DNA of 48,046 nucleotides. Source: an uncultured Candidatus Saccharibacteria bacterium. GTDB lineage: Bacteria; Patescibacteriota; Saccharimonadia; Saccharimonadales; UBA10212. The notes under the pieces are model-generated. The model was not told the DNA's origin, made no database searches, and saw only the letters and a list, made by a program, of their open reading frames with translations. Made by a program: the position numbers and the translations under genes. The first letter of the stretch is position 1, and each line of letters starts with the position of its first letter. The stretch covers positions 16,108 through 64,153 of the forward strand of contig CAYTYX010000002.1 in NCBI GenBank assembly GCA_964442325.1, given 5' to 3'. This document shows, in pieces, positions 19,313-47,135 of this stretch.

Positions 19313-20317
19313 CTATATCCTCTCCGGATGATAGCTGGCTGGTGCGGTGTGCAGGTAATGATTTATCTCGGCCATATTAAGTAAGCCGGCCTGCGCACCG
19401 ACTTTTTGGACAACGCTCATTGCATTAATTGGGGCCATCAGCAGCGCCGACTCTATATCGGCGCCACGCGCCAGCGCCGCTACAAATGTTGAACTAAAAG
19501 CATCGCCCGCCCCGGTGCGCTCGTACGGCGGTCTGGGATCTGGGTAAATCGGCATCTTAAACCGACGACTGCCATCGCTGGCGTAGGCGCCCTTAGGCCC
19601 GTCGCTAATTAAAACTATCTTTGGCCCAAGCGCATGCAACTTATTAAATAGGTCGTGGATATCACTATGATTACCGCCGCTCACGGCTACGGCCTCTTCG
19701 CGGTTGACGCTCAAGACCTCTGTTCGCTCGTATATCCGCCGCAACTTCTTGGCACCCATTTCAATTTGGAAAGTGCCCGGGTTGAAAGCTAGTTTGATGG
19801 TCAGGTGCGCTTCTAGCCACTCCGCAATATAATCGTGGTACTCGCCGGCATACTTGCCAACGGAACTAAAATAGACCCATCGGGGTAGATCGCTAATATG
19901 AAAACGAGGCCAGCGGTAATTGTAGTCGACGCTGTTCACCAAGATGGTTCTTTCCTCCTTATACCAAAGGACGTAGTGATAATGGCTGGGCTTGCCGGTG
20001 TTAATACGGACAAAACGGGTATCGACATGGCTTGTCTGCAAAGCGTGAATAATATCACGCCCCCATGTATCTTCTCCGACATTAGACGCCAAGCCGGCGC
20101 TCAAACCAAGCTTCGCCGACGCAACGGCGGCATTGGCGGCATTACCGACGCCCTCGACTATTTCAGTGTGATCAAATGGCACTTTGGTGCCAAACGGAAT
20201 CGCCAGCCAATTGCCATCGGGCCGTTTCTCGACCCGCTCGTCCTCGTCGAGTAGTCTTATAAACGCATCGGTCACCACGTCGCCAACAGCTAAAATATCC
20301 AGCTGCTTTTCAATCAT
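19313..20317 (-). CDS. PfkB-family carbohydrate/sugar-phosphate kinase
   Basis: N-terminal ILAVGDVVTD and C-terminal TGAGDAFSSTFVAAL (PfkB signature 2). 334 aa. Confidence 0.85.
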   Translation of the reverse strand: MIEKQLDILAVGDVVTDAFIRLLDEDERVEKRPDGNWLAIPFGTKVPFDHTEIVEGVGNAANAAVASAKLGLSAGLASNVGEDTWGRDIIHALQTSHVDTRFVRINTGKPSHYHYVLWYKEERTILVNSVDYNYRWPRFHISDLPRWVYFSSVGKYAGEYHDYIAEWLEAHLTIKLAFNPGTFQIEMGAKKLRRIYERTEVLSVNREEAVAVSGGNHSDIHDLFNKLHALGPKIVLISDGPKGAYASDGSRRFKMPIYPDPRPPYERTGAGDAFSSTFVAALARGADIESALLMAPINAMSVVQKVGAQAGLLNMAEINHYLHTAPASYHPERI

Positions 20318-31897: not shown

Positions 31898-33208
31898 ATG
31901 GATCAAGAGCTCCTATCGTCGGCCGCGGCGGTTTTAAAGCAAAATGACCGCGGTAGCTATACCGTGCCAGCTGGTGATTTATATCCGCATCAGTGGCTGT
32001 GGGACAGCTGTTTTATCGCCATCGGCCTGCGGCATCTTGATATAGAACGTGCTAAAACCGAACTAGAAAGTTTAAAACGCGGCCAGTGGAGTAACGGCAT
32101 GCTGCCCGATATGATTTTTGGCTCAAAGCGAGCAAGCCTAGATGGGCTGCTTTGGGATAGCGCCATTAGCCCATTCGCGCCCGAGCACGTTACCACCAGC
32201 GGCATCACAGACCCGCCAATGCTAGCCGAGGCGGTTATGTCTGTTGGCCAAAAGTTAAAATTGCCCGAACGCCGGACTTGGTATAAACAAATGCTGCCAA
32301 CCATAATTCATTTTCACCAGTGGTTATATCGCGAACGCGACGTCCGGCACGAAGGCCTGATTACCATAATCCACCCATACGAATCCGGTATGGACAATTC
32401 GCCGCCTTGGATTGAGGAACTAAAAGATCACGGTATACCGATATGGGTAAAAGCTGCCGAAAAACTAAAGCTTGGGAGATTGATAAAACACGTCCGGCGC
32501 GACACTCGCCACACGCCAGCCAACCAGCGGATGAGCAACGTCGAAGCGCTGGCTTTTTGGTCAGCTTTGCGCCACTTGCAGCATAAAGCCTACGACTCCA
32601 AAAAAATCTTGTCTAAACCACGACTTGATTTACAAGATCTGGCCTTTAACTGTATTTTAATCCGCGCCAACGCCTGCCTAAAGGACATCGCCAAAACCGC
32701 CGGCGTAGACTTACCCAAAGAACTGCTAGGCGATATCAAGCGCGGCGAAGAAGCCCTAGAACAGCTTTGGGACGAGCCAAGCGGCCAATACTATAGCCGG
32801 AGTTTTGCTAGTGGCGAGCTGGTTATGCAGCCAAGCATCTCGACCTTTTTAACTCTATACGCCGGAACGATTCCTAAAGAGCGGGCCGAAAAGCTGGTTG
32901 GTTTGCTAAGCAAGCGGGGTGCATATAAATCGATTTGGCCAGTGCCTAGCGTGCCGGCAAACTCCGAATATTTTGACCCGGAGCGCTATTGGCAAGGCCC
33001 GGTTTGGGTCAATATGAACTGGCTGATTATCCAGGGCTTGCGGCGCTACGGTTTCGATAAAGAAGCCGACGTGCTGCGCGATAGAACGCTGGAGCTAGTG
33101 GCCAAAAGTGGCTACCACGAATACTTCAATCCATTAGACGGGACGGGACTAGGCGCCAAAAACTTTTCTTGGACCGCCGCCCTAGCAATTGACTTACTGA
33201 AGACTTAA
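31898..33208 (+). CDS. Six-hairpin (alpha/alpha)6 glycoside hydrolase, GH63/MGH1-like
   Basis: YPHQWLWDSCFIAIG and YWQGPVWVNMNWL motifs, typical of the glucosidase/mannosylglycerate-hydrolase-like family. The ORF-track start at 31856 is a TTG only 3 nt from the divergent pheS start, so the ATG at 31898 is preferred. Confidence 0.7.
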   Translation: MDQELLSSAAAVLKQNDRGSYTVPAGDLYPHQWLWDSCFIAIGLRHLDIERAKTELESLKRGQWSNGMLPDMIFGSKRASLDGLLWDSAISPFAPEHVTTSGITDPPMLAEAVMSVGQKLKLPERRTWYKQMLPTIIHFHQWLYRERDVRHEGLITIIHPYESGMDNSPPWIEELKDHGIPIWVKAAEKLKLGRLIKHVRRDTRHTPANQRMSNVEALAFWSALRHLQHKAYDSKKILSKPRLDLQDLAFNCILIRANACLKDIAKTAGVDLPKELLGDIKRGEEALEQLWDEPSGQYYSRSFASGELVMQPSISTFLTLYAGTIPKERAEKLVGLLSKRGAYKSIWPVPSVPANSEYFDPERYWQGPVWVNMNWLIIQGLRRYGFDKEADVLRDRTLELVAKSGYHEYFNPLDGTGLGAKNFSWTAALAIDLLKT

Positions 33209-34266
33209 TCTTCGTCTAGATTGGGGCGGTCGATTAGCATCGGTTCGACAGTTGGTTCGACTTCAGCGATTTTTACTATGTCTTTATCGATTTTACCCAG
33301 CTCTTTATAGGTAGCGTTAAAGTGCCCTACGGTTGTGCCCAGCGAACTGCCCAACCGGTTCATATAGCCGCTGTGTGCCACCAGATGCTTACTGAGCTGT
33401 TCGATGTTTTTGCGAATCTTATCGGTGTCTTTTTGGATTTCTAGGCTGCGCATCCCTTGCACTATCACTTGCAACATCGCACTCAAAGTACTGGGGCCCA
33501 CAATTGTTACTTTTTTATCTTTGGCGGCATATTGCATTAGGTTACGGCCGGAAACGCCAGCCGCACCAACTTTATTAGCTAGTAAATCATAATAAATCGC
33601 TTCGCTTGGGATGAACATCAGCGCTTGGTCTAGCGTTCCCTTATTGGTGTTGATGTATTTACTGGTCTCATCAATGCGGCGTTTAAGGTCTTCTTTAAAG
33701 CTGCGTTCCAGCGCTGGGCGCTCTTCGGCTTTGGCCTCGACCAGTCGGTTGTAGTTTTCTAGACTGAATTTGCTGTCGATTGGCAGCAATCGGTCATCCA
33801 GTTTAATAACCGCGTCGACTGTTAGGCCAGGACCCATTTTATATTGTAGTTCGTAACTCCCGGGTGGCAGTAGGTTTTTGAGGATTTGGTCCAGATAGTA
33901 TTCGCCCAACACGCCGCGCTGTTTGGGATTTTGTAAAACGTTTTGCAAGGTTTTAAGCTCGGCCGCAACATCACCCACGCTTTTGTTGGTTCGGTCCAGT
34001 TCGGTAAGTTTTTGGGTGACATCGGCAATGATTTTTGCGCTGGCCGCAAACTGAGCCTGCATTTGCTTGTTGGAAGTACCAAGCTGTTCAGTCAGCTGCT
34101 TTTGCAAGCCATCTTTGAGGCTATTCATAGATTTGGTCAGCTCGGTCATATCGGCCTTAAGTAGCATTGTGGCGTCGGCGCCGCCAGCTGGTTTGTAGAG
34201 TTTCCAAAAAATAAAACCGGCTAACCCAACTACCAAAACCACCAAAACAATTACTGCCGCTATCAT
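33205..34266 (-). CDS. rmuC: DNA recombination protein RmuC
   Basis: N-terminal TM helix, long coiled coil, C-terminal RmuC nuclease-like region (MFIPSEAIYYDLL...). 353 aa. Confidence 0.85.
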   Translation of the reverse strand: MIAAVIVLVVLVVGLAGFIFWKLYKPAGGADATMLLKADMTELTKSMNSLKDGLQKQLTEQLGTSNKQMQAQFAASAKIIADVTQKLTELDRTNKSVGDVAAELKTLQNVLQNPKQRGVLGEYYLDQILKNLLPPGSYELQYKMGPGLTVDAVIKLDDRLLPIDSKFSLENYNRLVEAKAEERPALERSFKEDLKRRIDETSKYINTNKGTLDQALMFIPSEAIYYDLLANKVGAAGVSGRNLMQYAAKDKKVTIVGPSTLSAMLQVIVQGMRSLEIQKDTDKIRKNIEQLSKHLVAHSGYMNRLGSSLGTTVGHFNATYKELGKIDKDIVKIAEVEPTVEPMLIDRPNLDED

Positions 34267-35797: not shown

Positions 35798-36979
35798 ATG
35801 GCAACCCAAAAAATCTTGATTTTAGGCGGCGGCTTTGGCGGCGTTAAAGCTGCGCTGGAACTATGCGGCCAGCCGGATTTTGAAGTTACCGTTTTAAGCG
35901 ACCGGCCAGACTTTAGGTTTTACCCAGCGCTTTACGAAACCGCGACCGGACGGCGCAAATCCGCCTCGTCTATTCCACTGGCCGAAATTTTTGATGGCAA
36001 ATCAGTTCGACTGGTTAGCAGCAGTGCTCAGCAAGTAGACCGTTCTACCAAAAAAGTGACCACCAAAGATGGGCAGAGTTACGGCTACGACATTTTAATT
36101 TTGGCGCTCGGTGTTGTTACTAATTTTTTTGGCATCAAAGGTTTAGACAAGTACGCCTACGGCATTAAAACCGAAGACGAAGCCCAACGCCTGCGCTCGT
36201 CTATCCATAAACAGTTGGTAGAGCAAGCCCAGCCGGATGTTAATTATGTAGTGATTGGCGGTGGCCCAACCGGTATCGAGCTGGCCGGTGCCCTACCGAC
36301 TTACATCAAACATATAATCAAGCGCCACGGCCTAAAGACAAATATGCCGCATATAGATTTAGTGGAGGCTTCGCCGCGGCTGGCACCACGTATGCCGGCG
36401 GGCTATTCGCGATCAATCGCCAAGCGCCTGCAAAAATTAGGCGTTAATCTTTACCTCAACCAAAAGGTCGAGGCCGAAACCGCCGATGCCCTGATGGTGA
36501 GTGGCCACTCTATAAAAAGTCATAGCGTAGTTTGGACGGCCGGCGTGACCAACCATCCGTTCCTAAAGACCAACGATTTTAAGCTGGACGAACATGGCAA
36601 AGCAATAGTAGATGAACATCTTAGCGGCGGCCCGGATATCTACATTATTGGCGACAACGCCGCCACCAAATATTCGGGTATGGCCCAAACAGCCGTCTAC
36701 GACGCCAAATTTATTGCCAACAATTTAAAACGCCAAGTCGATGGCAAAAAGCCATATGCGTACAAACCAAAACAGCCTGTCTATATTACGCCGGCCGGCC
36801 CGCACTGGGCGGCCGTCCAGTGGGGCGGCTTTCGCTTTTACGGATTATTGGGTTGGCTGCTACGCGGTGCGGCCGATTTAGTGGCCTACCACGATTTTGA
36901 ACCTTTGAACCGGGCATCTAAGCACTGGCTGGCCGAAGGCCAAAGCGATGCCAGCTGCCCTGTCTGCGACCATCACTAG
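35798..36979 (+). CDS. ndh: Type II NADH dehydrogenase-like FAD-dependent oxidoreductase
   Basis: ILILGGGFGGV and VVIGGGPTGIELAG dinucleotide-binding motifs, plus IYIIGDNA. 393 aa. Confidence 0.85.
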   Translation: MATQKILILGGGFGGVKAALELCGQPDFEVTVLSDRPDFRFYPALYETATGRRKSASSIPLAEIFDGKSVRLVSSSAQQVDRSTKKVTTKDGQSYGYDILILALGVVTNFFGIKGLDKYAYGIKTEDEAQRLRSSIHKQLVEQAQPDVNYVVIGGGPTGIELAGALPTYIKHIIKRHGLKTNMPHIDLVEASPRLAPRMPAGYSRSIAKRLQKLGVNLYLNQKVEAETADALMVSGHSIKSHSVVWTAGVTNHPFLKTNDFKLDEHGKAIVDEHLSGGPDIYIIGDNAATKYSGMAQTAVYDAKFIANNLKRQVDGKKPYAYKPKQPVYITPAGPHWAAVQWGGFRFYGLLGWLLRGAADLVAYHDFEPLNRASKHWLAEGQSDASCPVCDHH

Positions 36980-36999
36980 ATTTCAAGCAAAAAATAAAA

Positions 37000-37036
37000 G
37001 TGCAGGCCAATTTAGCCTGCACCTAGTTTTTGTTGT
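37000..37036. terminator. Bidirectional rho-independent terminator between ndh and the yggT-like gene
   Basis: GTGCAGGC (37000-07), a 7-nt loop, GCCTGCAC (37015-22). An A-tract lies upstream (AAAAAATAAAA) and a T-tract downstream (TAGTTTTTGTTGTTT). Confidence 0.65.
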
Positions 37037-37059
37037 TTATTGCGTTTGTCTCTAATGGA

Positions 37060-37353
37060 TTAGCGGCGTCGGTTAACCCACTTAACCAGCGTGTAGCCGG
37101 CTGTGGCGTAGACCAGGATGGCGAACAAAGCGCCAAAGTCTACAGTGTGGCCGCTTGTAGTTGGAGCTACAGAGTAGACCTCACGGAAGGGCTGAAGCAA
37201 CGTGCTGCTGCTTTGGTACACCCAGTGTACAAACGTTGCCGACGGGCTGGCCGAGAGAATCTCGAATACTGCCCGCAAAGCTAGTAGAACGGATGCAAGC
37301 CCTGCGTAAAAGTTAATAATCCATCCCACCGTTTGAACCTGAGAGTATTTCAT
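37060..37353 (-). CDS. YggT-family membrane protein
   Basis: 97 aa with two TM segments and a central ...TLLQPFREV...VDFGALFAILV pattern, resembling the YggT P-x-R ... D-x-S/G motif. Confidence 0.6.
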   Translation of the reverse strand: MKYSQVQTVGWIINFYAGLASVLLALRAVFEILSASPSATFVHWVYQSSSTLLQPFREVYSVAPTTSGHTVDFGALFAILVYATAGYTLVKWVNRRR

Positions 37354-37511
37354 TACCCCTCCTTAAGTTAATGCTTGAATTATAAAATCAAGTAGACGAT
37401 ATCGCCAATAGTAGGTTTTACTACATTTACAAAAAGTAAGTTTTGTATGCTGATTACTTATTAGCACAAGCGTAAACGCTAAACAATCTTAATAATGGTT
37501 CAAACTAGCCA

Positions 37512-37534
37512 AAACCGCAGGCTTCAATCGTAAG
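37512..37534 (+). repeat. Possible degenerate copy of the cassette-boundary repeat
   Basis: AAACCGCAGGCTTCAATCGTAAG matches about 14 of the 21 consensus positions plus a 2-nt insertion. It lies just outside high-GC island B. Confidence 0.25.
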
Positions 37535-37553
37535 ATTAAAGACTATGGTGTTG

Positions 37554-37577
37554 GCCGGGCCCCCGAAGGGACCCGGC
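37554..37577 (-). terminator. GC-rich hairpin after the island B ORF (no U-tail)
   Basis: GCCGGGCCCC / GGGACCCGGC stem (one mismatch), loop CGAA, beginning 6 nt beyond the stop codon on the minus strand. Confidence 0.45.
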
Positions 37578-37582
37578 AAGGT

Positions 37583-37888
37583 TCAGGCCGATGTGGCTGC
37601 CCGGTAGGGCTGCGGACCCGCGTAGGAGCGGATCAGCAACGCCAGCAGGTACAGCACGACGTCGCCCACGATGTTGGAGCGATCCTGGTAGTTCGCCGCG
37701 ATGAGCGTGAAGGCGATGATCGCGAAGCCCGCCAGCGAGAAGTACGCGAAGACGTGCCAAGCGACCCACGTGTGACCAGACTGGTAGTTCGTGCCGATGA
37801 TGGCGAGGCTGATGCCGAGGAAGGCCAGCGGCAGCGGCGTCCACTCGATCTCGAACAGACCGATGAAACGGTTGAGCGCGCGGCTCAT
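37583..37888 (-). CDS. Small 3-TM membrane protein encoded in high-GC island B
   Basis: The ATG at 37888 is preceded by GGAGG (complement of 37896-37900). 101 aa (MSRALNRFIGLFEIEW...) with three hydrophobic helices and G/C-rich third positions. The longer ORF-track start at 37951 has no RBS. Confidence 0.6.
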   Translation of the reverse strand: MSRALNRFIGLFEIEWTPLPLAFLGISLAIIGTNYQSGHTWVAWHVFAYFSLAGFAIIAFTLIAANYQDRSNIVGDVVLYLLALLIRSYAGPQPYRAATSA

Positions 37889-37891
37889 TGT

Positions 37892-37930
37892 GAAACCTCC
37901 GTGGGAGGGTTTCGGCGCTAGTCTAGCGCC
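37892..37930 (-). promoter_or_regulatory. RBS-sequestering hairpin plus a 17-bp perfect palindrome in the island B leader
   Basis: The RNA GAAACCCUCC-CAC-GGAGGUUUC (37892-37913) pairs the whole GGAGG. GGCGCTAG-T-CTAGCGCC (37914-37930) is a perfect palindrome. Confidence 0.4.
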
Positions 37931-38017
37931 CCGATCGCAAAATGAACGCATCCACCTTGCGATAAGTCCATATTATAATATTATTTAACAATATAAGCAA
38001 TAGTGCTATGGGTTCAG

Positions 38018-38039
38018 CTCCTACCCGCTTGGTTTAGAG
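38018..38039 (+). repeat. Degenerate copy of the cassette-boundary repeat upstream of the topoisomerase IB gene
   Basis: CTCCTACCCGCTTGGTTTAGAG shares the CCCGCTT core, and its 3' continuation GAGCGTG is identical to the copy at 40282. Confidence 0.35.
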
Positions 38040-38059
38040 CGTGACTGCATCTATCATTA

Positions 38060-39049
38060 ATGCATATGTCTAAGCGTTATATCGAGCGGCAGCGCACCGG
38101 CACCAAATCCTTCCAGTACTTCCACGGCGGCCGGCAAATTACAGGCAAAGATGAGCTGGCGTACTTTAAGTCACTGGCCATACCACCCGCCTGGCAAGAC
38201 GTAAAGATTGCCGCCAGCCATAACGCCAAAATTGTGGCAACCGGCATAGACAAGGTTGGGCGACTGCAATATGTCTACAATGCTAAGTTCCGAGCCCGCC
38301 AAGAAAAGGAAAAGTTCGAACGTATTCTGCGCTTTGCCCGGGCCCTGCCTAAAATGCGCCGCGTTACCGACGAACATTTGAAGCAGCCCGGTCTGCCGCG
38401 CGAAAAGATTCTGGCCTGCATCGTCCAGCTGATGGACAAAGCCTACTTTAGGGTCGGTAACGAAGAGTACGCGCTAGCTAACCAGCACTATGGTCTTACA
38501 ACTTTGCGCAGCAAGCATACCCAAATCAAAGGCGATACCATTGTGTTTGACTTTGTGGGCAAAAGCGGCCAGGAAAACCTCAAAAAAGTTACCGATAAAC
38601 GCCTGGCCAAAATTGTTAAAAAGTTGGACGATCTGCCGGGTTACGAGATTTTTCAATACGTCGCTGAAAACGGTGATTTAAAAGACATCGATAGTAGCGA
38701 CGTCAATGAATACATCAAAGAAATCATGGGCGAGGAATTTAGTGCCAAAGACTTTAGAACTTGGGGCGGCACGCTGCTGGCCAGCATCGAGCTAACCCAA
38801 ACCGAGCGTTCACATTCCATAAACGAGCGTAAAAGGGCCGTAACCGAATGTGTTAAAAAGGTGGCCCAAACTTTGGGCAACACGCCAGCCATCGCCCGCG
38901 CCAGCTATATAGATCCACGCGTCATCCACGCCTACGTGGTCACCAATGATTTATACAAAGTCCGCCAAGCCGTCAAAACATTATCACGGACGCCTTACCT
39001 GACTTCCGACGAGCACTGCGTTTTAAACCTGCTCGAAAAATCTGCCTAA
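38060..39049 (+). CDS. Type IB DNA topoisomerase (bacterial/poxvirus-like)
   Basis: 329 aa. Contains FDFVGKSGQ (catalytic Lys region), KDFRTWGGT (Arg), and NTPAIARASYIDP (Asn-x8-Tyr with the nucleophilic Tyr). The stop TAA (39047-49) is the first three bases of the repeat. Confidence 0.85.
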   Translation: MHMSKRYIERQRTGTKSFQYFHGGRQITGKDELAYFKSLAIPPAWQDVKIAASHNAKIVATGIDKVGRLQYVYNAKFRARQEKEKFERILRFARALPKMRRVTDEHLKQPGLPREKILACIVQLMDKAYFRVGNEEYALANQHYGLTTLRSKHTQIKGDTIVFDFVGKSGQENLKKVTDKRLAKIVKKLDDLPGYEIFQYVAENGDLKDIDSSDVNEYIKEIMGEEFSAKDFRTWGGTLLASIELTQTERSHSINERKRAVTECVKKVAQTLGNTPAIARASYIDPRVIHAYVVTNDLYKVRQAVKTLSRTPYLTSDEHCVLNLLEKSA

Positions 39050-39067
39050 CCGGCCGCTTATTTTGAG
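39047..39067 (+). repeat. Cassette-boundary direct repeat, copy 1
   Basis: TAACCGGCCGCTTATTTTGAG, 20/21 to consensus TAACCGCCCGCTTATTTTGAG. Confidence 0.8.
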
Positions 39068-39169
39068 CATAAATTGCTTACTTAGTGCTTTTATTGTAAA
39101 ATAATTCCGTTCTGCTAGGCTCTTTCGCCCAAACGGCGATTGGTACAAAACGTCTACAGGAGGTACGAG

Positions 39170-39592
39170 GTGAGCTCGGTTACTGCTTCGCACAGGTTCC
39201 CGTGGCAGGTCTTCCGAGGGCCGGCAAGCTTGGTCGCGGCCTACGTGGTCGGCTACAACGTCGTGCATGACGTCGCGAACAACCAGTGGTGGTTCCCGTT
39301 CGCGTTCGCGGCACTCGCGGTGCTGACCGTGTTCTTCGAGGGCGTCTACGACGAGCCTCTGCCCGGCGGAGCGCTCGGCCCTAGGGACATGAGCAACATC
39401 ATGTGCATGCTCCTTGCCCTCGGCATCCCGGCCGTCGCCGTCATCGGAGGCGCTTTCCACAGCGGGTGGTACTGGTGGGTTGGAGCGCTGGCCATGTTCC
39501 TCGTGAACACGATCCTGTACTTCGGGTTCCGGCAACGCGGCCTCAGCGGCCTGGTCGTCGTCGTCTGCTTGTTCGCGCTCGCGGTCTTCTGA
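39170..39592 (+). CDS. Small 4-TM membrane protein encoded in high-GC island C
   Basis: The GTG at 39170 lies 6 nt after AGGAGG (39158-63). 140 aa with four hydrophobic segments and Trp-rich loops, at about 58-67% GC in hand counts. Followed by a 16-bp hairpin. Confidence 0.6.
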   Translation: MSSVTASHRFPWQVFRGPASLVAAYVVGYNVVHDVANNQWWFPFAFAALAVLTVFFEGVYDEPLPGGALGPRDMSNIMCMLLALGIPAVAVIGGAFHSGWYWWVGALAMFLVNTILYFGFRQRGLSGLVVVVCLFALAVF

Positions 39593-39610
39593 CGGCCTCC
39601 ACATCGACTG

Positions 39611-39647
39611 CCCCCACCGTGTCCGCTTCGTGCGGACGCGGTGGGGG
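39611..39647 (+). terminator. Long GC-rich hairpin after the island C ORF
   Basis: CCCCCACCGTGTCCGC - TTCGT - GCGGACGCGGTGGGGG, a 16-bp stem with one G-U pair. No U-tract follows. Confidence 0.55.
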
Positions 39648-39654
39648 TATTAAA

Positions 39655-39675
39655 CTACCGCCCGCTTATTTTGAG
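39655..39675 (+). repeat. Cassette-boundary direct repeat, copy 2
   Basis: CTACCGCCCGCTTATTTTGAG, 19/21 to consensus. Confidence 0.8.
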
Positions 39676-39720
39676 TGTGCTTATGCTTGCAATTTATTGG
39701 TTATAAATTAGATTACAGTT

Positions 39721-40002
39721 ATGAGCTCACGGAATTCTGGATCGCCTGAAATTAGATTCTGTTTGACTGACTTCGCGAATGGTCTCTTGGATCGGCGGGT
39801 AGATTCTTTGACTGAAGAGGAAACTGACAAGCTTAATGCCGCTTATTATGCAAAGGGGATTGGTGAGACAATATTCGCATGTACGAACGAAGGCTGTCGA
39901 ATGATGTATGGGCTGTGTTCGGTCGATGGTGTGCTATATCCAGGCAACCTTGTCATACATGAAGCGCCTTGTATGAACATCAAGTCAATCGAGCAAGAGT
40001 AA
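39721..40002 (+). CDS. Hypothetical 93-aa Cys-containing protein
   Basis: It is the sole ORF between repeat copies 2 and 3. Five Cys residues (C14, C54, C59, C66, C84). No recognisable family. Confidence 0.5.
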   Translation: MSSRNSGSPEIRFCLTDFANGLLDRRVDSLTEEETDKLNAAYYAKGIGETIFACTNEGCRMMYGLCSVDGVLYPGNLVIHEAPCMNIKSIEQE

Positions 40003-40027
40003 CCAGCCGTAATTTTGATATCTATTC

Positions 40028-40048
40028 TAACCGCCCACTTATATTGAG
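40028..40048 (+). repeat. Cassette-boundary direct repeat, copy 3
   Basis: TAACCGCCCACTTATATTGAG, 19/21 to consensus. Confidence 0.75.
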
Positions 40049-40050
40049 GG

Positions 40051-40056
40051 TATAAT
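40051..40056 (+). promoter_or_regulatory. -10 box (TATAAT) positioned for a leaderless transcript of the 73-aa ORF
   Basis: TATAAT, then 6 nt, then ATG at 40063. It lies immediately after repeat copy 3. Confidence 0.35.
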
Positions 40057-40062
40057 TTATCT

Positions 40063-40284
40063 ATGCGCTGGCTTTCCAAGTTCCAGATACCTCTTTACAC
40101 ATTTATTTGGTTTTTGGTTTTGCCTTTTCCTTTTGAACCAGGCTGGAAGTTATTTGGCGGTTACCACATCATTGCGAACACATATAACAGCTCCGTCACT
40201 CGCCGGCTTATGTTCATCTTAGTATCGCTAATCCTAGGCTGGTTGACCTATAAAGCCCTGAACCGCAAGAATAGTTCCGCTTAA
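40063..40284 (+). CDS. Hypothetical 73-aa two-TM membrane protein
   Basis: It is the sole ORF between copies 3 and 4. Two hydrophobic helices. Its TAA stop (40282-84) is the first three bases of repeat copy 4. Confidence 0.5.
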   Translation: MRWLSKFQIPLYTFIWFLVLPFPFEPGWKLFGGYHIIANTYNSSVTRRLMFILVSLILGWLTYKALNRKNSSA

Positions 40285-40302
40285 CCGCCCGCTTATTTTG
40301 AG
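40282..40302 (+). repeat. Cassette-boundary direct repeat, copy 4 (matches consensus exactly)
   Basis: TAACCGCCCGCTTATTTTGAG, 21/21. Confidence 0.85.
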
Positions 40303-40306
40303 CGTG

Positions 40307-40735
40307 CTATCGCCAGAGTTGGTAGTTTTTGGTTAGAGCGTCCACTTCGTCTTTGGGGCCAAAAATCCCTATGCCCAGGTATTCAATCTCGCTGTCTGTT
40401 TTTGAAGCGAGTATTTTGGTTATCTCTTCGTCGTCTGTGGTTTCTATCATTTCTTTTATAAAGCCGTGGTAAAGCAGGCCAGAGCCGCGAACTTTGTCCA
40501 TCAAGTTGGGTAACTGCCCCGGCTTGGCGCGAAGAATAATTATGGCATACTGCGAGTTACGCGGGTGGTCTATGCCGTCTTTGCTAACAAAGTTCTCTGC
40601 CGTACCAAAAGACTCCTCTAGCTTATGGCCCAAATACGCGGAAACGTGGGCAATAGTGTTTAAGACTTGCCACTGTTCCAGCTCCTTATTAACTACAATT
40701 ACCGCTTTTTTTGAAAAATCCTGAGCTTTAGCCAT
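40307..40735 (-). CDS. DUF2000-like protein (PTH2-like fold family)
   Basis: 142 aa. KAVIVVNKELEQWQVLNTIAHVSAYLG...YAIIILRAK...GLLYHGF pattern, recalled as typical of DUF2000. It is the sole ORF between copies 4 and 5. Confidence 0.55.
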   Translation of the reverse strand: MAKAQDFSKKAVIVVNKELEQWQVLNTIAHVSAYLGHKLEESFGTAENFVSKDGIDHPRNSQYAIIILRAKPGQLPNLMDKVRGSGLLYHGFIKEMIETTDDEEITKILASKTDSEIEYLGIGIFGPKDEVDALTKNYQLWR

Positions 40736-40755
40736 TACTCTATTTTAACTCAAGA

Positions 40756-40777
40756 TAATCCGCCGGCTTATTTTAAG
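40756..40777 (+). repeat. Cassette-boundary direct repeat, copy 5
   Basis: TAATCCGCCGGCTTATTTTAAG is the consensus with one inserted T and two substitutions. Confidence 0.65.
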
Positions 40778-40794
40778 AGACTTTAAATATTCTT

Positions 40795-42135
40795 TTATTG
40801 ACTACCTGAAATTAGTGATTTTGCCTCAACGACCAATGAATCAAATTCTGCAGAGTTCCCCACATCACTCATAAATCGAGTGAGTTCTTGGCGACCGGAC
40901 TGAGCATCTGCATATTTGTAATTAAACCATCCAGCCATAAACAAGAAGACTGGGTTCTCTGTCCTTTCAAATTCGGTAAGATCAAAATCTATAACTTTAA
41001 GGATAGAGGTTTCGCGTAGGAATTTTGGCTTCAATCTTTTTAATCTTGCTAAGCCCTTCTTGTGCTTTCCCTCGGCCATATCCAAAAAGGCTAAGTTGAT
41101 TTTAGGCAACTGACTTCGGGGTAATAGTCGAGCGGCCATATGTGTATGCTCTTTTGCCTTTTTGGAGTCACCCATTCGCCAATATTGTGTCGAGAGATCT
41201 TGATGGATCCGCCCGTTGCTTGGATCTAACAGCAGCGCTTTTTCGGCATACTCGTTAGCTTCTTTAAACTCTTCTTCCCAGTTGTGATGCTGGTTCATCC
41301 CCATGTACATTCGAATCAAATATTTTTGAACTTGCAATTTAACATAGTCGAGATTAGGGAAATTCACATCTAATAGTCTCGACTCGAGTTGTTTGTGTAG
41401 AGACTCAAGTATTTTAAGTGCAGCCAACACATACCTCATTTCTCGCAACGACTCCAGACAAACAGCTAATGTAAAGAGGCTCATCTCAGCCACATTCCCG
41501 GCAACGATTTTTATTTCGGGCAGTGAATTTGTTTTCTGAATATCCCAGTTCCCTCTTTTGTTCGACTCTTTCAGAATTGATTCTATATAAATCTTCTCGT
41601 GTGGGGCTCGCGTTGAAAATTGATAAGAGATCTTAATATCAAATCTTGTAACGTCAACTTTATTGAATGATCCTTCTAGGGCATCGCCCCAAACTAGAAC
41701 CCTTATCCCGTTTTTTGTTATGAATTTCTCTGCTTTATCAGCGGAGCTAAAAGATAAGTCAGAGGGATAGCGCCTAAATTTTATTAGCTCCCCCAATCCT
41801 TCTTGATTAACAATATTTGTTAGTGCCTTCTGCACTTTTTGGGTAATCTTGGCTACCTCTTCGTCTTCTGGCTTTATGGCTATTCCGATGACTAATTCTT
41901 GCGGTGAGCGTAGTTTTAGCCATTTGTAGGACCAGGTTATGATGACCGCTAGTAGGGAAAGTACGATTATCACTGAAGATATATTCGCGGGTAAAAATAT
42001 TCCAATAGAGCGAAGTCCCCCAATGACCACAGTTTCAATTATTAGAATAGCGAAGCAATAGATGAGGAGACTGTCTTTAGTCCCCCACTCAGCCTTCTTT
42101 AATTCTTGTAGCCAATTTGTAACACTCTCAGCCAT
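40795..42135 (-). CDS. Membrane-anchored protein with an unknown central domain and C-terminal TPR-like repeats
   Basis: 446 aa. Two N-terminal TM helices, a beta-alpha-patterned middle region (VIGIAIKPEDEE...IRVLVWGD), and a C-terminal helical repeat region (EYAEKALLLDPSNGRIHQDLSTQYWRMGDSKKAKEH...). About 37% GC in a hand-counted sample. Confidence 0.7.
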   Translation of the reverse strand: MAESVTNWLQELKKAEWGTKDSLLIYCFAILIIETVVIGGLRSIGIFLPANISSVIIVLSLLAVIITWSYKWLKLRSPQELVIGIAIKPEDEEVAKITQKVQKALTNIVNQEGLGELIKFRRYPSDLSFSSADKAEKFITKNGIRVLVWGDALEGSFNKVDVTRFDIKISYQFSTRAPHEKIYIESILKESNKRGNWDIQKTNSLPEIKIVAGNVAEMSLFTLAVCLESLREMRYVLAALKILESLHKQLESRLLDVNFPNLDYVKLQVQKYLIRMYMGMNQHHNWEEEFKEANEYAEKALLLDPSNGRIHQDLSTQYWRMGDSKKAKEHTHMAARLLPRSQLPKINLAFLDMAEGKHKKGLARLKRLKPKFLRETSILKVIDFDLTEFERTENPVFLFMAGWFNYKYADAQSGRQELTRFMSDVGNSAEFDSLVVEAKSLISGSQ

Positions 42136-42264
42136 TTTGTCCTCTTCTTAAATATACACCCAGAAAGAAGCTAGAAATTAATAGAGGCCTTATACGTCCA
42201 CTCGGGAGTTGGGGCAGCACGGGATGTTGATTTAATTAAAGAAATTTGTTTCTGCTAGCTCGTC

Positions 42265-42297
42265 GGGCAAAAAACCTCCCAGAAGCAAAAACTTGGG
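42265..42297 (-). terminator. Weak rho-independent terminator about 150 nt downstream of rarA
   Basis: The minus strand reads CCCAAG-UUUUUGC-UUCUGGG followed by AGGUUUUUUG. Confidence 0.4.
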
Positions 42298-42362
42298 ACT
42301 GCGCCATCCGATTACCGACTGCTACGTATCAGGTTTTGCTACGGGACAGGCTTTGGGGTGCC

Positions 42363-42386
42363 TACCGCCGCCCTAATATCTTGATG
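42363..42386 (+). repeat. Possible degenerate copy of the cassette-boundary repeat
   Basis: TACCGCCGCCCTAATATCTTGATG shares ACCGCC..C..TA.T.TTGA with the consensus but needs indels to align. Confidence 0.25.
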
Positions 42387-42442
42387 CTCCAATTAGGGAT
42401 ATTCTCCCTCTTGTCGCTTCAGGAATTAGAGCTGGACGAACA

Positions 42443-43639
42443 CTAATCAAAGAAGTTTATATTTTTGATTTCTGAAGGTAAAAAACCTTCAGGGTGTTCG
42501 AACCCAGCTTCCCATTTCGTACCTTTGCCGTAGCCCAAATCTTTCATCAGCTTGGTTGGCGCGTTGCGCAGGTGCAGCGGCACGGGCAAATCCGGATATT
42601 GCCGAGCGGTAGCTTGAGCTTTGCCCATAGCATTTGTAATATCGCGGCTTTTGGGCGCTTTGGCCATCACCGTGGCGCAGTGAAACAGATTATATTGGCA
42701 CTCTGGCATTCCAATTCGTTCTACCGCCAAAAAAGTCGACACGGCCAAATTTAGCGCCGCCGGAGCGGCCATGCCGATATCTTCGCTGGCAAAAACCACC
42801 ATCCGCCTAGCAATAAACTTTGGGTCTTCCCCGGCCTGTAGCATCCGCGCCATATAATAAAGCGCTGCGGTTGGGTCGCTGCCACGCATAGATTTTATAA
42901 ACGCGCTGATGATGTTGTAGTGCTGCTCGCCGGCTTTGTCGTACCCCGGAATCCGAGCTTGGGCAGCTTGCTCCACGATTTTATCTGTAATTACGGCTTT
43001 ACCGGCCAGCTGATTGGCCAGCTCCAGGTTGCCCAGCGCCACACGGGCGTCGCCACTGGAAAGTTCGGCCAGCATATCTAAACTTTTGGCCGGTAAGCGC
43101 TTGGCGGCAATTTTTTCTGCCTTGGCCGCGGTTTTAAGAATGTGGGTGATGTCTTGTTTTGTTAGCGGGTTGAGCACAATCACCCGGCTGCGGCTAAGTA
43201 GCGGCGTGATGACTTCGAAACTGGGGTTTTCGGTAGTAGCGCCGATTAGCGTGACTAAGCCAGACTCGACGTGTGGCAAAAAAGCATCTTGTTGGGCCTT
43301 ATTAAAACGATGAATTTCATCCACGAAGAGTACCGTTTTGACAGGTTTTTCGACGGTACTACCTTGCTCGTTCTTACGAGCCCGCTCGACCACTTTTGTA
43401 ACATCGGCTTTGCCGGCGTTAACGGCGCTAATTTCTACAAAGTCGGCTTCTAGTTCGTTGGCAATAATCCGGGCCAGCGTAGTTTTGCCGCTACCGGGCG
43501 GCCCCCAAAAAATCAAACTAAAAGGCTTGCCGGCTTTAACCAACTCGTCTAAAAGTTTGCCACGGCCCAAGATATGTTCTTGGCCGACTACCTGTCCCAA
43601 AGTTTGCGGGCGCATCCGCTCCGCCAAAGGTCTGTCCAT
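42443..43639 (-). CDS. rarA: Replication-associated recombination protein A (AAA+ ATPase)
   Basis: Walker [12 protein letters not shown], Walker [10 protein letters not shown], and a C-terminal MgsA domain ([24 protein letters not shown]). 398 aa. Confidence 0.9.
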
Positions 43640-43799
43640 ACACTTATTATGTCACTTTAATAAGATTGCCGCCTATTTTACAAATTTTGAGTCTAAAATC
43701 TTACAGCGCGGAGTGTTTTTTGGCGTCATACTGCATATGGGATTTATGTGTTTTGTAAATCCACCACCTAATCACCACCAAAAACTCTAGGAGGGCGAT

Positions 43800-44365: not shown

Positions 44366-45880
44366 TTAAACGTAGCCGGGGAAGAAGTCTGTTTTAATAC
44401 GGTTTCTGGCTACACCGAGTCTTCTTAAAATATCCGTCATCGCTTTAACCATAGTGTGCGTTCCGGAGATGTAAAATGTTCGCTCAGCGTAGTCTGGTAT
44501 CTGAGCCTTTATGAGCTTGGCGTTGATTGGGCCGGGCTTAGCGCCAGCCGGCAAAGTCGCGGTCTGGCCGGTCAACACGTAGGTGACGCTGTGGCCTAGT
44601 TTGCGCCGGGCGGCTTCGAACACATCGGTATATACTAGCTCGTTGGCATTCTTGGCAGAATAGAGCATAGAGACGGAGCGATTATCGTTGGTGTCTAGTA
44701 GGTATTTGGTCATACTGCGAAACGGTGTTATGCCAATACCGCCGGCTATAAAGGCCAGTTTCTCGGCTTTGTCTTCGGGCATTGTAAAGTCGCCGCCAAG
44801 CTGGGCAACGGCTATTGGCGTGTCGTTATCCATTACCAACATAGCTTGTTTGAAGCTGCTGCTTTGGGAGTAAAATTTTACGCCTAGCCTAAGATTGTCT
44901 TCGGTTGGCGACGAAGCTAGGGTAAAGTAGCGGCGATTGCCGCGAGCGTCGGCACCGGCGTGTGGCAGCGTCCACTCGGTATATTGGCCGGGCTTGTACG
45001 AAAATTTTTGGTTATTAGAGAAAACAAAATCAACTACATCTGGCGCCAGCTTATGTTTTTGAGCCAGTTTTGGTAGCAACTTAACTTTTGGAGTTATCAG
45101 ATACGAAAAGATGTTGCTGGCAACCAGCGCTAGCTCCGGCGTTGAATACAGGCTAAATAAATGAACTTGTGGCGGCAGTAAGATGCCGGCCAAAGCCCCA
45201 TACCACCTTTGGCCAACTTTGATAGCTGGCGAAGTTAGAGGCTCGATCAGCATCACAAACGCCAGGAAAAATAGCGGTGAGTGTAACAGCGCTCGATGCA
45301 AGGCGTCTGACACGCCGCCACCACCAATTAGTGTATAAACAGCAGTAGCTATAAGCGTGGCCGCCAAAAAACTAAACACCATTTGCCAACGCTGAATTTT
45401 CCGCACCAGCAGCATGCCGCCCAGCACAACCAGTGGCAGTAGGTGCGAACTACTCACCCACCAGCTGGCAGTGTCGCCAGCGCCAATCGCCGTTAGCGCA
45501 ACCGCTACCGCCGCCGGGTTAAAGATGTGCTTTTTATTGATCGTTAAAATGTATTTAGAAGCCATAGCCAACCCGCCAGCGGCCGTTAGAAAAATCAAGC
45601 TTTGACTCGAGGCCAGCGGCGTGATTATGAGCGACAGTATCAACGCCGTAATCAGCGGCGACTCAATAGCGGCCGGTACCTCGTAGGCATAGGCAAATAT
45701 CTTATTAGATACATAGCAAATCAAACTTAGATAACCGGCCGACAGGGCAATTGCCAACGGTTTATACGAGATATAGCCGGTCGCGCCCATAACCATAGCC
45801 CCGGCCAGCAAAAATAATAGATAGTACAGTGTTAGCCGGTACATCGAGATACTATCTAGCACTTTATCTATAAACTTCAT
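44366..45880 (-). CDS. Membrane-embedded FNR-like flavin reductase (polytopic N-terminal domain fused to a FAD/NAD(P)H-binding domain)
   Basis: About 250 aa of TM helices, then RRYFTLASSP (RxY[ST] FAD motif) and GGIGITPFRSM (NAD(P)H-binding motif). 4-nt overlap with apbE. Confidence 0.75.
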   Translation of the reverse strand: MKFIDKVLDSISMYRLTLYYLLFLLAGAMVMGATGYISYKPLAIALSAGYLSLICYVSNKIFAYAYEVPAAIESPLITALILSLIITPLASSQSLIFLTAAGGLAMASKYILTINKKHIFNPAAVAVALTAIGAGDTASWWVSSSHLLPLVVLGGMLLVRKIQRWQMVFSFLAATLIATAVYTLIGGGGVSDALHRALLHSPLFFLAFVMLIEPLTSPAIKVGQRWYGALAGILLPPQVHLFSLYSTPELALVASNIFSYLITPKVKLLPKLAQKHKLAPDVVDFVFSNNQKFSYKPGQYTEWTLPHAGADARGNRRYFTLASSPTEDNLRLGVKFYSQSSSFKQAMLVMDNDTPIAVAQLGGDFTMPEDKAEKLAFIAGGIGITPFRSMTKYLLDTNDNRSVSMLYSAKNANELVYTDVFEAARRKLGHSVTYVLTGQTATLPAGAKPGPINAKLIKAQIPDYAERTFYISGTHTMVKAMTDILRRLGVARNRIKTDFFPGYV

Positions 45881-46617
45881 CCGGCAACCACGTATCTTTC
45901 AAAACCACTAGTGAGAGTGGCTAATTTATCACCACTAATCATATAGCCTTCAAAGCCATCTAGCTTTTCTATAAACTCGATGCCACGCTTGCCCATCGCG
46001 AATGCGGCGGTGGCAAAACGGTCGGCTTCGTAAATGTTTGGGCCAATGACCGTTAGGCTCGCCACTGCCTCCAGATCTGCACTGGAATTTTTTGGGTCAT
46101 ATATGTGCTGTCCGCGAATATAGGTACCTGAGGTGGCGACGCCTTTATCGGTTAACTCGATTATTTTTACTATCTCTTCCCTTTTAAATGGGTTGCGGAT
46201 ACCGATTCGCCACAGCTGCCCCTCGGCACTGCTGCCGTGTATTTCTACGTCGCCGGCTATCTCGACATAAAAATTGCGGAAGCGTTTGGCTAGCAGCTGG
46301 GCGGCGTTATGGATGGCCCAGCCTTTAACTAAGCCGGACGGATCCAGCTTGCCGGCATGGGAAATTTCAAAGTAGCCATCGGTTTGTTGCTTGGTCTGTT
46401 CGCAGAGATCTAAGACTTGTTTCATCTCGGCCGACCATTTGTTTTTGGGCAGGCCTTGATTGACTTTAGAGATCTCGCTGGATAATTTATAGGTGCTGTA
46501 TTTGGCGTCAACTTCGTGGAAATAATCAAACACTTCATCAAACACGTCACCAGTAGCGGCTTTATCGATGATTTCGACTGTGGCTGGCATACCCATTACT
46601 ATTTTAGTTTTCTTCAT
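45877..46617 (-). CDS. apbE: FAD:protein FMN transferase (ApbE family)
   Basis: 246 aa. MGMPATVEI...DPSGLVKGWA...VEIAGDV...VATSGTY...HIYDP pattern of the ApbE family. This is a short form without an obvious signal peptide. Confidence 0.8.
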   Translation of the reverse strand: MKKTKIVMGMPATVEIIDKAATGDVFDEVFDYFHEVDAKYSTYKLSSEISKVNQGLPKNKWSAEMKQVLDLCEQTKQQTDGYFEISHAGKLDPSGLVKGWAIHNAAQLLAKRFRNFYVEIAGDVEIHGSSAEGQLWRIGIRNPFKREEIVKIIELTDKGVATSGTYIRGQHIYDPKNSSADLEAVASLTVIGPNIYEADRFATAAFAMGKRGIEFIEKLDGFEGYMISGDKLATLTSGFERYVVAG

Positions 46618-47135
46618 TAGTGCGCCTGGCTTAAAGCCGAAGCCAGCGATTCTATAAAGGCTTGGCTGGTATCGCTGGCACCGGAAATTATATTTACATT
46701 GCTACTCTGGGCTTGAATGGCTTCTTGTTTGAGGTAAGGCAGGGCTTGGCCGTTTATGTAAACTGAGGTTGAGCGGTCACTCGGGTACTGTAAAATTTGC
46801 ACGTCGGTCAGTTTGCCACCCTGGATAACTGCCTGCACTTGAATATATCCGTAGTACGCGTTGGCGGCACTACCGGTGTAGTTACCGTTTTTATACTGGC
46901 CGGTGGTTTGCTGAGGCGTAGTTGTTGCAGCTGGAGGGGTAACGGTGCCACCATCGTCTGCGCCTTCTGAATTTATAGAAGTTGATGGAGGCGTAGATGT
47001 CGGGGTCTGGATAGGCGGTAAGACCAAAGCAACGCCAGAGCCGTCGTGCCGTTGATGAAAGCTATAGGCAACAAAAGTAAGCACCACAAAGCCGGCCAGC
47101 AAGGATTTTTTTAGATTTTTACTAGGTTCAAACAC
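46617..47135 (-). CDS. Membrane-anchored extracytosolic FMN-binding domain protein
   Basis: N-terminal TM anchor, a Thr/Pro-rich linker, and an FMN_bind-like domain ending in the flavinylation-type motif IISGASDTS (about 46674..46685). Confidence 0.75.
   Translation of the reverse strand: MFEPSKNLKKSLLAGFVVLTFVAYSFHQRHDGSGVALVLPPIQTPTSTPPSTSINSEGADDGGTVTPPAATTTPQQTTGQYKNGNYTGSAANAYYGYIQVQAVIQGGKLTDVQILQYPSDRSTSVYINGQALPYLKQEAIQAQSSNVNIISGASDTSQAFIESLASALSQAH

Follow-up and report, generated by a model that had tools for sequence, protein, structure and literature searches.

The closest described systems to the locus reported here are integrons and the related clusters of attC sites lacking an integron integrase (CALIN). 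An integron requires an intI gene with attI and the promoter Pc at the end of the array, and a CALIN is without intI. The attC site is made of two complementary inverse core sites, R'' (RYYYAAC) and R' (GTTRRRY), within an imperfect palindrome of 55–140 nt that carries extrahelical bases. Patescibacteria, including Saccharibacteria, have tiny and highly syntenic genomes, and no description of integrons or cassette arrays in Saccharibacteria or Patescibacteria was found in the literature searched. Here, we analyse a stretch of 48,046 nt (contig CAYTYX010000002.1; called the window here) from a Candidatus Saccharimonadales bacterium (Saccharibacteria, TM7) of soil. Beside rarA, the window carries a row of single genes separated by copies of a short junction element with two conserved boxes. 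We read this locus, with somewhat more belief than doubt, as a hypervariable cassette array without an integrase, in which modules are exchanged by recombination at the junction element, and we favour a site-specific recombinase as the agent. Labels such as L161 or L176 denote the contigs or loci compared, and coordinates without such a prefix are those of the window.

Functionally, the locus most resembles integron and CALIN arrays. The units are single genes bounded by a recurring site that lies at or overlaps a stop codon. The site variants are homogeneous within a genome and different between genomes, the cargo consists mostly of small proteins of no assigned function, and the content differs sharply between close relatives, with the boundaries at the sites. 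The left box of the element reads YTAAC, like the R'' box, and the longer forms have conserved ends with a variable and partly palindromic middle. An integron or CALIN that had gone unrecognised would show such features. The site, however, measures 21 nt (52–110 nt in its long forms) and does not have the attC fold: an R' box is missing, the left and right boxes lack complementarity, the short forms contain no palindrome, and neither significant folds nor covariation was seen. No IntI gene and no attI/Pc platform are present, each module has its own promoter, the modules lie in mixed orientations, and the host phylum is Patescibacteria. The attC reading was rejected, in agreement with an earlier note on this DNA that had judged the repeat not to be attC-like. 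A canonical integron or CALIN is highly improbable.

The two-box junction element

The 21-mer CCGCCCGCTTATTTTGAG (equal to TAACCGCCCGCTTATTTTGAG) has five clear copies between 39047 and 40777, all on the plus strand, and none elsewhere in the 48,046 bases. This number, as the earlier note had counted it, was not reached by any of 100 dinucleotide shuffles. Four sites carry at most two mismatches (39047, 39655, 40028, and 40282), and the 18-nt core is also found at 40760. Copy 1 (39047–39067, plus strand, one mismatch) and copy 2 (39655–39675, plus strand, two mismatches) are short forms. The TAA of copy 1 is the stop codon of the gene for a type IB topoisomerase (TopIB), and copy 2 lies directly 3' of the hairpin of a high-GC cassette. 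Copy 3 (40028–40048, plus strand, two mismatches) has its right box against the −10 box TATAAT (40051–40056) of a leaderless gene for a 73-aa protein, an arrangement that is repeated before an unrelated gene in L103 (10625–10660). Copy 4 (40282–40302, plus strand) is the exact consensus, and the 73-aa open reading frame (ORF) terminates at its TAA. Both overlaps with stop codons had been noticed before and are correct. The stop codon of the DUF2000 gene, on the other strand, starts 5 nt past copy 4, with 4 bases between; GCTCAAAAT in the 3' flank of this gene is kept also in L167. Copy 5 (40749–40777, no strand assigned) is made of two back-to-back right arms that form the palindrome CTCAAGATAAT-CCGCCGG-CTTATTTTAAG, a property that the earlier note had missed. 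It contains the 18-mer core at 40760–40777 with two mismatches and has one extra base in its left part. Its minus-strand arm abuts the −10 box of the leaderless DUF2000 gene.

Each junction is also present in one or more assemblies that were made independently, from a different sample or with a different pipeline. L001 (Logan SRR8465028) corresponds to 36483–39153 and includes copy 1, L166 (JGI Ga0265337) corresponds to 39651–41571 and covers copies 2–5, and L175 (ENA), from a close strain, spans copies 1 and 2. L001 and L166 end on either side of a high-GC cassette, at 39153 and 39651, which could be taken as a sign of repeat-induced chimeric joins in a metagenome contig. However, these three contigs reproduce each junction, and the two breaks fit poor coverage of a segment that has 66 % GC and a hairpin of −47 kcal/mol; this, and not heterogeneity, is their likely cause. 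We find an assembly artefact hardly credible.

Comparison with the related genomes shows that the 21-mer is the shortest version of a bipartite junction element. Its left box reads TAACCGCCCGC(CCC), and the gene upstream often ends at the TAA in this box. After about 4 nt in the short form comes the right box, (C)TTTGAGCG. Long forms are short forms with a hairpin of 31 nt or about 75 nt inserted exactly between the boxes. In the window orientation, the type 1 repeat reads TAACCGCCCGCCCC-ATAAAACTAAGAGTTTACGGGCTAAACCCC-TTTGAGCGT, with the 31-nt hairpin between the boxes; there are six copies in L176, two or three in L184, and one in L103. Type 2, which these three loci carry as well, has the same end boxes and a palindromic insert of about 75 nt. 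Short forms also occur in L176, L184, L170, and L103. The 21-mer proposed as the site in the earlier note was thus a conserved junction sequence, but the unit is the two-box element with its short and long forms.

The type 2 element has a length of 108 nt and folds into a long imperfect hairpin. It is found in L176 at 18331–18440 and 19743–19852, in L184 at 12899–13007, and in decayed form in the window. The copies are 97–99 % identical between two genomes whose core genes are 91–95 % identical, so that the element has either spread recently or is strongly constrained.

Across genomes whose core DNA is 72–92 % identical, the boxes are nearly invariant. Smaller variants of the element are alike within a genome and different between genomes: CCACCCG is present in both L175 copies and CCGSCCG in both window copies, and a TTGGTTT variant is common to L161 and L170. 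The TAA or TAG of the left box is the stop codon of a co-oriented upstream gene in about 13 of 22 copies, and the promoter of the next gene, often leaderless, comes after the right box.

The weaker candidates in the window are of unequal standing. With an ungapped matrix, none of the degenerate candidates rises above chance (scores ≤0; 66 window positions score ≥0). The copy at 38018–38041 (plus strand) lies upstream of TopIB and contains the −35 box TTGGTT (38029–38034). The similarity at 38018–38039 is seen only with gaps, and L103 has a clearer orthologue (TAACCACCCGCTTGGTTTAGAGCG), which makes the earlier suggestion for this site credible; in relatives, the −35 region of the TopIB promoter keeps GCTTG. 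One or more decayed type 2 elements lie at 42275–42400 (plus strand), next to the 3' end of rarA, and align with the type 2 elements of L176 and L184. The candidate at 42363–42386 stands as the left box of this region. The two others proposed, at 37512–37534 and 43666–43693, found no support and are indistinguishable from chance. A further degenerate copy that had been overlooked, TAACCAGCCGTAATTTTGAT (40000–40019, plus strand), was read from the sequence; the 93-aa ORF ends at its TAA, and its matrix score is not significant.

To see where the element occurs, a position matrix was trained on ten copies, and 136 kb of related DNA were scanned. Strong matches were confined to the interval between the FMN_bind/SIMPL/TopIB side and rarA, and none was found in 104 kb of flanking DNA outside the arrays. 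The search of related DNA that the earlier note had proposed therefore gave strong copies only beside rarA. The matrix also found an untrained copy, TAGCCGTCCGCTTATTTTGAGCG, in L170, where it follows SIMPL, the TAG is the stop codon of SIMPL, and TopIB is absent from the locus. One exception outside the interval is a weaker match (score 20.3) to a palindromic, copy-5-like module of 42 nt upstream of uvrB in L012. L012 (JABGQT010000194.1, 3760–5902) is labelled as an Anaerolineae bin, and its uvrB has 66–70 % DNA identity to window 14963–16936; it is probably a mis-binned Saccharimonadia contig. Repetitive extragenic palindromic (REP) sequences, bacterial interspersed mosaic elements (BIME), and miniature inverted-repeat transposable elements (MITE) occur in many copies genome-wide in extragenic DNA and are usually palindromic. 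For the junction element, these 104 kb gave no strong copy, and one copy-5-like module lies upstream of uvrB in L012.

A scan of the GTDB species representatives with the 18-mer returned 101 single matches in unrelated taxa, where about 139 were expected by chance by our own estimate, so that it does not bear on the genome-wide spread of the element. The match in a Saccharibacteria metagenome-assembled genome (L078) sits inside gyrB. In IMG/VR, the core of the long form had no match and the short form had two, which is the chance level, and this points away from a phage origin. No Rfam match was obtained at the elements in the window, L176, L184, or L103.

The element has a strict polarity. 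Inside the arrays, one strand has 22 left boxes (at most one mismatch) and the other has two (binomial p = 4e-5), versus nine on each strand outside; the enrichment in the arrays is threefold (p = 1e-6). The polarity is constant irrespective of the orientation of the flanking genes.

These features bear on the question of whether the element only serves gene expression at this locus, as an insulator, terminator, operator, or part of a promoter, while genes are inserted and lost by unrelated illegitimate events. Gene-content breakpoints would then coincide with the element only since it fills the short intergenic spaces. The position of the left box at stop codons suits such a role. A −10 box with a leaderless ATG after it directly adjoins the right box at copy 3, at copy 5 on the minus strand, at L103 10625, at the 73-aa gene of L176, and in other cases, and the right box overlaps the −35 box of TopIB and of L161_163. 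Promoter modules A and B recur downstream of the element before unrelated genes, and the long forms contain a hairpin. The spacing, however, does not suit it: the distance from the element to the promoter varies (−20 to −56), and the distance between the boxes, 4 to about 75 nt, is too variable for a single bound regulator. The constant polarity and the absence from 104 kb of flanking intergenic DNA argue against it as well, and unrelated genes that each lie between complete elements are not predicted by random insertion. We consider a purely regulatory element unlikely, at a level that still deserves attention.

A terminator in particular was rejected. The scanner called no intrinsic terminator at any copy, and there is no T-run. 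The fold z-scores of copies 3–5 (−0.2 to +1.5) are not significant; copy 1 is the sole copy with a significant fold, in which it pairs with the 3' coding end of TopIB. The long form makes a modest hairpin with no compensatory changes, that is, no covariation. Core genes use canonical terminators of a hairpin and a T-run, for example at 36998–37024. The element is not the general terminator of this genome. A promoter or activator site at a fixed distance was rejected too, as the distances to the −35 and −10 boxes vary widely. Putative mobile promoters resemble the locus in one respect: the right box and promoter modules A, B, and C are found repeatedly before unrelated genes, both in a single genome and across genomes. 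They differ in that the modules here are tied to a two-box element of fixed polarity, to one locus, and to gene-content breakpoints.

Variable gene content beside rarA

The gene rarA (mgsA; 42443–43639, minus strand) is a conserved anchor and forms one end of the array in all relatives. The other side of the variable interval is formed by FMN_bind/ApbE/NQR2 genes (Pyr_redox in the window). Gene content and order differ between genomes whose flanks are collinear, and the interval can be as short as 0.3 kb or exceed 10 kb. In L105, TopIB lies immediately next to rarA. L161 has 10 genes in 7.2 kb, L184 has nine genes and no TopIB, and L176 has at least 14 genes. The contigs L176–L183 and L184–L187, with RarA proteins that are 92 % identical, carry arrays of small genes beside rarA of at least 10 kb and 5.6 kb, respectively. 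L176 and L184 are 91–95 % identical in their core, yet have only two or three modules in common. The gene for the 140-aa membrane protein is found in three neighbourhoods: after TopIB (window and L175), next to rarA (L170), and with the Cys protein and DUF2000 (L167). DUF2000 is inverted between the window and L167, and the order of TopIB and SIMPL is swapped between L106 and L161.

The locus falls under the definition of a core-gene-flanked integration hotspot. Such hotspots, or 'minimal mobile elements', also have conserved flanks, different gene sets, and no mobility genes, in a competent host group (PMC10633639). Unlike the locus here, they have no internal junction repeat that splits the interval into single-gene units.

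Three precise breakpoints of homology fall exactly at the boxes of the element, which is what the alignment with relatives suggested in the earlier note was meant to reveal. Between the window and L175, homology stops immediately after ...TTTTGAG of copy 2. Between L176 and L184, a common module for a 109-aa protein starts within the element, at the boundary between ...GGTT and G (short form versus long form), and ends at the start of the next element.

The comparison with L175 also shows a change in divergence. At the 3' end of TopIB, the two strains have 13 synonymous differences in 52 codons, versus one synonymous and two non-synonymous differences in the 140 codons of the 140-aa gene. Overall, 14 of 157 sites differ on the TopIB side and 4 of 587 in the cassette (Fisher p = 3e-7). 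The identity jumps inside copy 1 from 91 % (TopIB) to 99 % (99.3 % for the 140-aa cassette). The contrast thus indicates a segment between two element copies with a history unlike that of its flank. Confinement to one locus, variable content, breakpoints at the boxes, and this less-diverged cassette support the integron-like accretion hotspot of the earlier note, although not its service by TopIB (see below).

Homologous exchange is also visible near these arrays. L177 is a mosaic: left of an ABC-transporter gene and of about position 6300 (around L176 6212–6314), it is L184-like, with 90 % identity to L176, and to the right it is L176-like, with 99.8 % identity. This is direct evidence of homologous exchange between co-occurring populations.

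The cargo in relatives includes RrnaAD-like and PCMT-like methyltransferases, a MORC-like HATPase_c_3 ATPase, and a DUF6036 nucleotidyltransferase. DUF2188, a histidine phosphatase, a UvrD_C fragment, SIMPL, and many small membrane proteins are also present (L176 11194–21197; L161 11024–18050; L103 9885–11770). The mix resembles that of integrons or defence islands. The variable array of L184 contains a gene of 87 nt for tRNA-Gly(TCC) (10975–11061, minus strand).

Sequences like the 3' end of rarA (..AAAGAAATC..) recur within the arrays near rarA, as a second repeat family separate from the two-box element. They lie at L176 11161–11191, 12401–12431, and 13904–13934, L105 1745–2007, L161 16093–16153, and window 42237–42276. 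This is the pattern expected if elements had once integrated into the 3' end of rarA.

Possible routes of module exchange

From the anatomy of the element, its confinement and polarity, the variable content, the breakpoints at the boxes, and the module of differing history, we infer recombination within the element. Modules would be gained, lost, reordered, and exchanged between lineages in this way. We suggest a conservative, site-specific reaction carried out by a recombinase encoded elsewhere in the genome. The substrate of this enzyme would be an asymmetric site, in which the right arm is conserved, the core is G+C-rich, and the left arm varies more freely. An excised module would leave as a circle in which a single element has been rejoined, and it could reinsert at any resident element.

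A site-specific recombinase is favoured for four reasons. The near-invariance of the boxes, in genomes of 72–92 % core identity, points to selection on the sequence and not to passive homology. The short form, at only 18–21 nt, is a poor substrate for RecA, yet module turnover is high. The polarity is strict, with the element nearly always on one strand. Finally, asymmetric Rci/sfx sites give a precedent.

No dedicated enzyme would be needed if the elements were portable short homologies, with RecA-dependent exchange of element-module-element DNA after natural transformation. Gene conversion would then keep the copies alike, and deletions would arise between direct repeats. Saccharibacteria are known to be naturally competent and to integrate DNA by homology (PMC10633639), and the L177 mosaic makes homologous exchange between populations visible. 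The long forms supply 52–108 nt at 85–99 % identity, the variants of the element are homogenised within a genome, and no recombinase gene is linked to the arrays. Strict polarity, however, is not required by this route, and the short length of the minimal form and the near-invariant boxes speak against it as stated above. Exchange by RecA alone seems to us improbable, if far from negligible.

The sfx sites of Rci are asymmetric, with conservation limited to the right arm and the 7-bp core (PMC11852207). In the shufflon of plasmid R64, as here, multiple asymmetric sites delimit short DNA segments. The sfx sites are inverted and give inversions only, whereas the sites here are direct. The rci gene adjoins the shufflon, whereas no linked recombinase is present here, and shufflon segments are alternative gene ends instead of whole genes.

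Xer modules (Acinetobacter pdif modules and integrative mobile elements exploiting Xer (IMEX) at dif) are likewise small, integrase-less modules between short sites that can accrete in tandem, and they are moved by a housekeeping recombinase encoded elsewhere, as we propose for the enzyme here. The dif site has 28 bp, with two 11-bp inverted arms and a 6-bp centre, and lies at the terminus; pdif sites alternate in orientation. The junction element differs in having no 11-6-11 architecture, no alternating orientation, and no terminus signal. Copy 5 is the sole palindromic copy, with a core of 7–9 bp, and all sites are direct. The GC skew is flat at the locus and does not switch sign, and a dif or terminus reading was rejected on this basis.

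Several observations weigh against exchange by a recombinase at the element. No recombinase gene was found in the 48-kb window or in any array compared; in particular, there is no Phage_integrase or other recombinase match in the window or in the arrays of L161, L170, L176, and L184. The earlier note had likewise seen no integrase, transposase, or IntI-like gene at the locus, and the window as a whole holds no integrase or transposase. Neither circle junctions nor empty sites were seen, so there is no direct evidence of excision. In two populations (eight and four samples), no cassette showed presence/absence polymorphism, and the arrays were structurally invariant. The left box of copy 2 has two substitutions relative to L175, which is a misfit to the simplest crossover model. 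The copy-5-like module of L012 is the sole element-like sequence outside the rarA locus, about 150 kb were examined out of genomes of about 1 Mb, and the element is absent from the variable junctions of more distant relatives (L104, L105, L107, and L110). The short intergenic spaces also mean that breakpoints would gather near the elements if insertions into genes were simply selected against. At least five right boxes lie directly against a −10 box and two overlap a −35 box, which makes a regulatory role possible.

A more specific proposal is that the locus belongs to a site-specific cassette system of Patescibacteria that has not been recognised before. It would use the bipartite site TAACCGCCCGC ... 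TTTGAGCG, with a hairpin tolerated between the boxes, and an unlinked recombinase that moves promoter-bearing single-gene modules, as an integron analogue independent of IntI and attC. We put this forward tentatively and doubt it more than we trust it.

The earlier note had named TopIB (38060–39049, plus strand; Pfam Topoisom_I and Top1B_N_bact) as the enzyme that might service the repeat. The protein matches Deinococcus radiodurans TopIB (2f4q) with E = 4e-66 and is, by homology, a bona fide type IB topoisomerase. Its start is probably the ATG at 38066 rather than 38060, with the −10 box TATCAT at 38052–38057. Poxviral TopIB is able to promote recombination at CCCTT. If the bacterial enzyme cleaved the repeat in a sequence-specific manner, it could catalyse cassette capture. 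In the window and in L103, TopIB has element copies on both sides. The sequence C-N-C-T-T is present in most copies, and CCCTT in two relatives. Unlike the poxviral case, however, the element and TopIB do not co-occur: element arrays without TopIB in the locus are found in L170 and L184, and TopIB genes without the element in L104, L105, L107, L110, and L164. The 'copy' upstream of TopIB overlaps the conserved −35 region of the gene. TopIB is widely conserved in Saccharimonadales, with hundreds of homologues of 60–89 % identity, and its presence, order, and neighbours vary between loci. It behaves as cargo because it changes place with SIMPL in L106 and L161. The characterised TopIBs of D. radiodurans and P. 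aeruginosa show a relaxed sequence preference and no site-specific covalent adduct (PMC2666729). A catalytic role of TopIB in capture is very unlikely. The data support TopIB as a module or neighbour, part of the variable cargo, and not as an evident catalyst.

Modules of the window and their setting

Each inter-repeat interval of the window holds one ORF, as had been claimed. The modules carry their own promoter, which is often leaderless, and often their own terminator, and they lie in mixed orientations. The first high-GC cassette (37555–37951, minus strand) encodes a membrane protein of 102–122 aa (ORF 37583–37888) that has no Pfam match. A second high-GC cassette (39068–39654, plus strand) follows copy 1 and encodes the 140-aa membrane protein (39170–39592). 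It has the promoter TTGCTT-17-TAAAAT (39074–39102), a Shine–Dalgarno site, and an 18-bp hairpin (39611–39647). The next cassette (39676–40027, plus strand) encodes a Cys-containing protein of 93 aa (39721–40002) and is leaderless, with the promoter TTGCAA-16-TAGATT. L161_83, a weak homologue of this protein, has a small membrane ORF behind it, which matches the order in the window. The 73-aa membrane protein (ORF 40063–40284) is carried by the cassette at 40049–40284 (plus strand). The DUF2000 cassette (40307–40735, minus strand) has the orientation opposite to that in L167, and the last cassette (40795–42135, minus strand) encodes a protein of 446 aa with transmembrane (TM) and tetratricopeptide repeat (TPR) segments. 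Exact-protein look-ups of the window cassettes returned only contigs identical to the window.

Four genes look leaderless, with a −10 box 6–8 nt before the ATG: TopIB (38052–38066), the 73-aa ORF (40051–40063), DUF2000 (40735–40748, minus strand), and the 93-aa ORF (39687–39721).

The G+C content at third codon positions (GC3) is 0.90 in the 102–122-aa ORF and 0.88 in the 140-aa ORF, 0.55–0.60 in core genes, and 0.41 in TM-TPR. Both high-GC modules are also unlike their neighbours in having a GGAGG Shine–Dalgarno site and a G+C-rich hairpin with a TTCG loop and no T-run (39611–39647 and 37555–37578). The earlier note had taken such contrasts to mean that each unit was acquired independently. 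The contrast itself is real (GC3 0.41–0.90), but the conclusion does not follow. The 140-aa family has a GC3 of 0.79–0.82 in L167 and L170, whose hosts have 0.58–0.60. Only seven members were found among 5.8 billion proteins, and a profile search of 1.84 billion representatives gave four matches, three of them with E < 1e-10. All members looked up lie in Saccharimonadales-like contexts, with no homologues outside the lineage. As the gene keeps its high GC3 in distant relatives and is confined to the lineage, odd composition as such is no proof of recent, separate acquisition. The import of the high-GC genes from an actinobacterial host was considered and rejected, given that the 140-aa family is rare and the members looked up are all Saccharimonadales-like.

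The names on the TopIB and RarA homologues are Candidatus Saccharimonadales or Saccharibacteria. The remaining window is housekeeping DNA, with genes for DnaE, GatAB, UvrB, pentose-phosphate and glycolytic enzymes, PheST, RmuC, an MFS transporter, and NDH-2. At the left edge of the interval lies a YggT-like gene (37060–37353, minus strand). It was not found at this locus in the relatives compared and may therefore itself be a module. In the window, the NQR2-like/ApbE/FMN_bind block (44366–47135, minus strand) is found to the right of rarA, but in L161, L170, and L184 it is on the far side of the array, so a larger rearrangement has taken place around the array. An RmuC-family gene (33205–34266, minus strand) lies about 3 kb from the array, as it does in L161, with no sign of involvement.

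Should the element prove to be only regulatory, it would still be an unusual junction module restricted to one locus. It is a candidate for a new recombination site with an enzyme behind it, and it could serve as a natural landing pad for the engineering of naturally competent Saccharibacteria. At this locus, gene turnover is focused on single-gene modules that bring their own promoters and meet at a defined junction sequence. It may thus represent a concrete route of gene flux in these epibionts, with a cargo that includes membrane proteins, methyltransferases, and defence-like ATPases.

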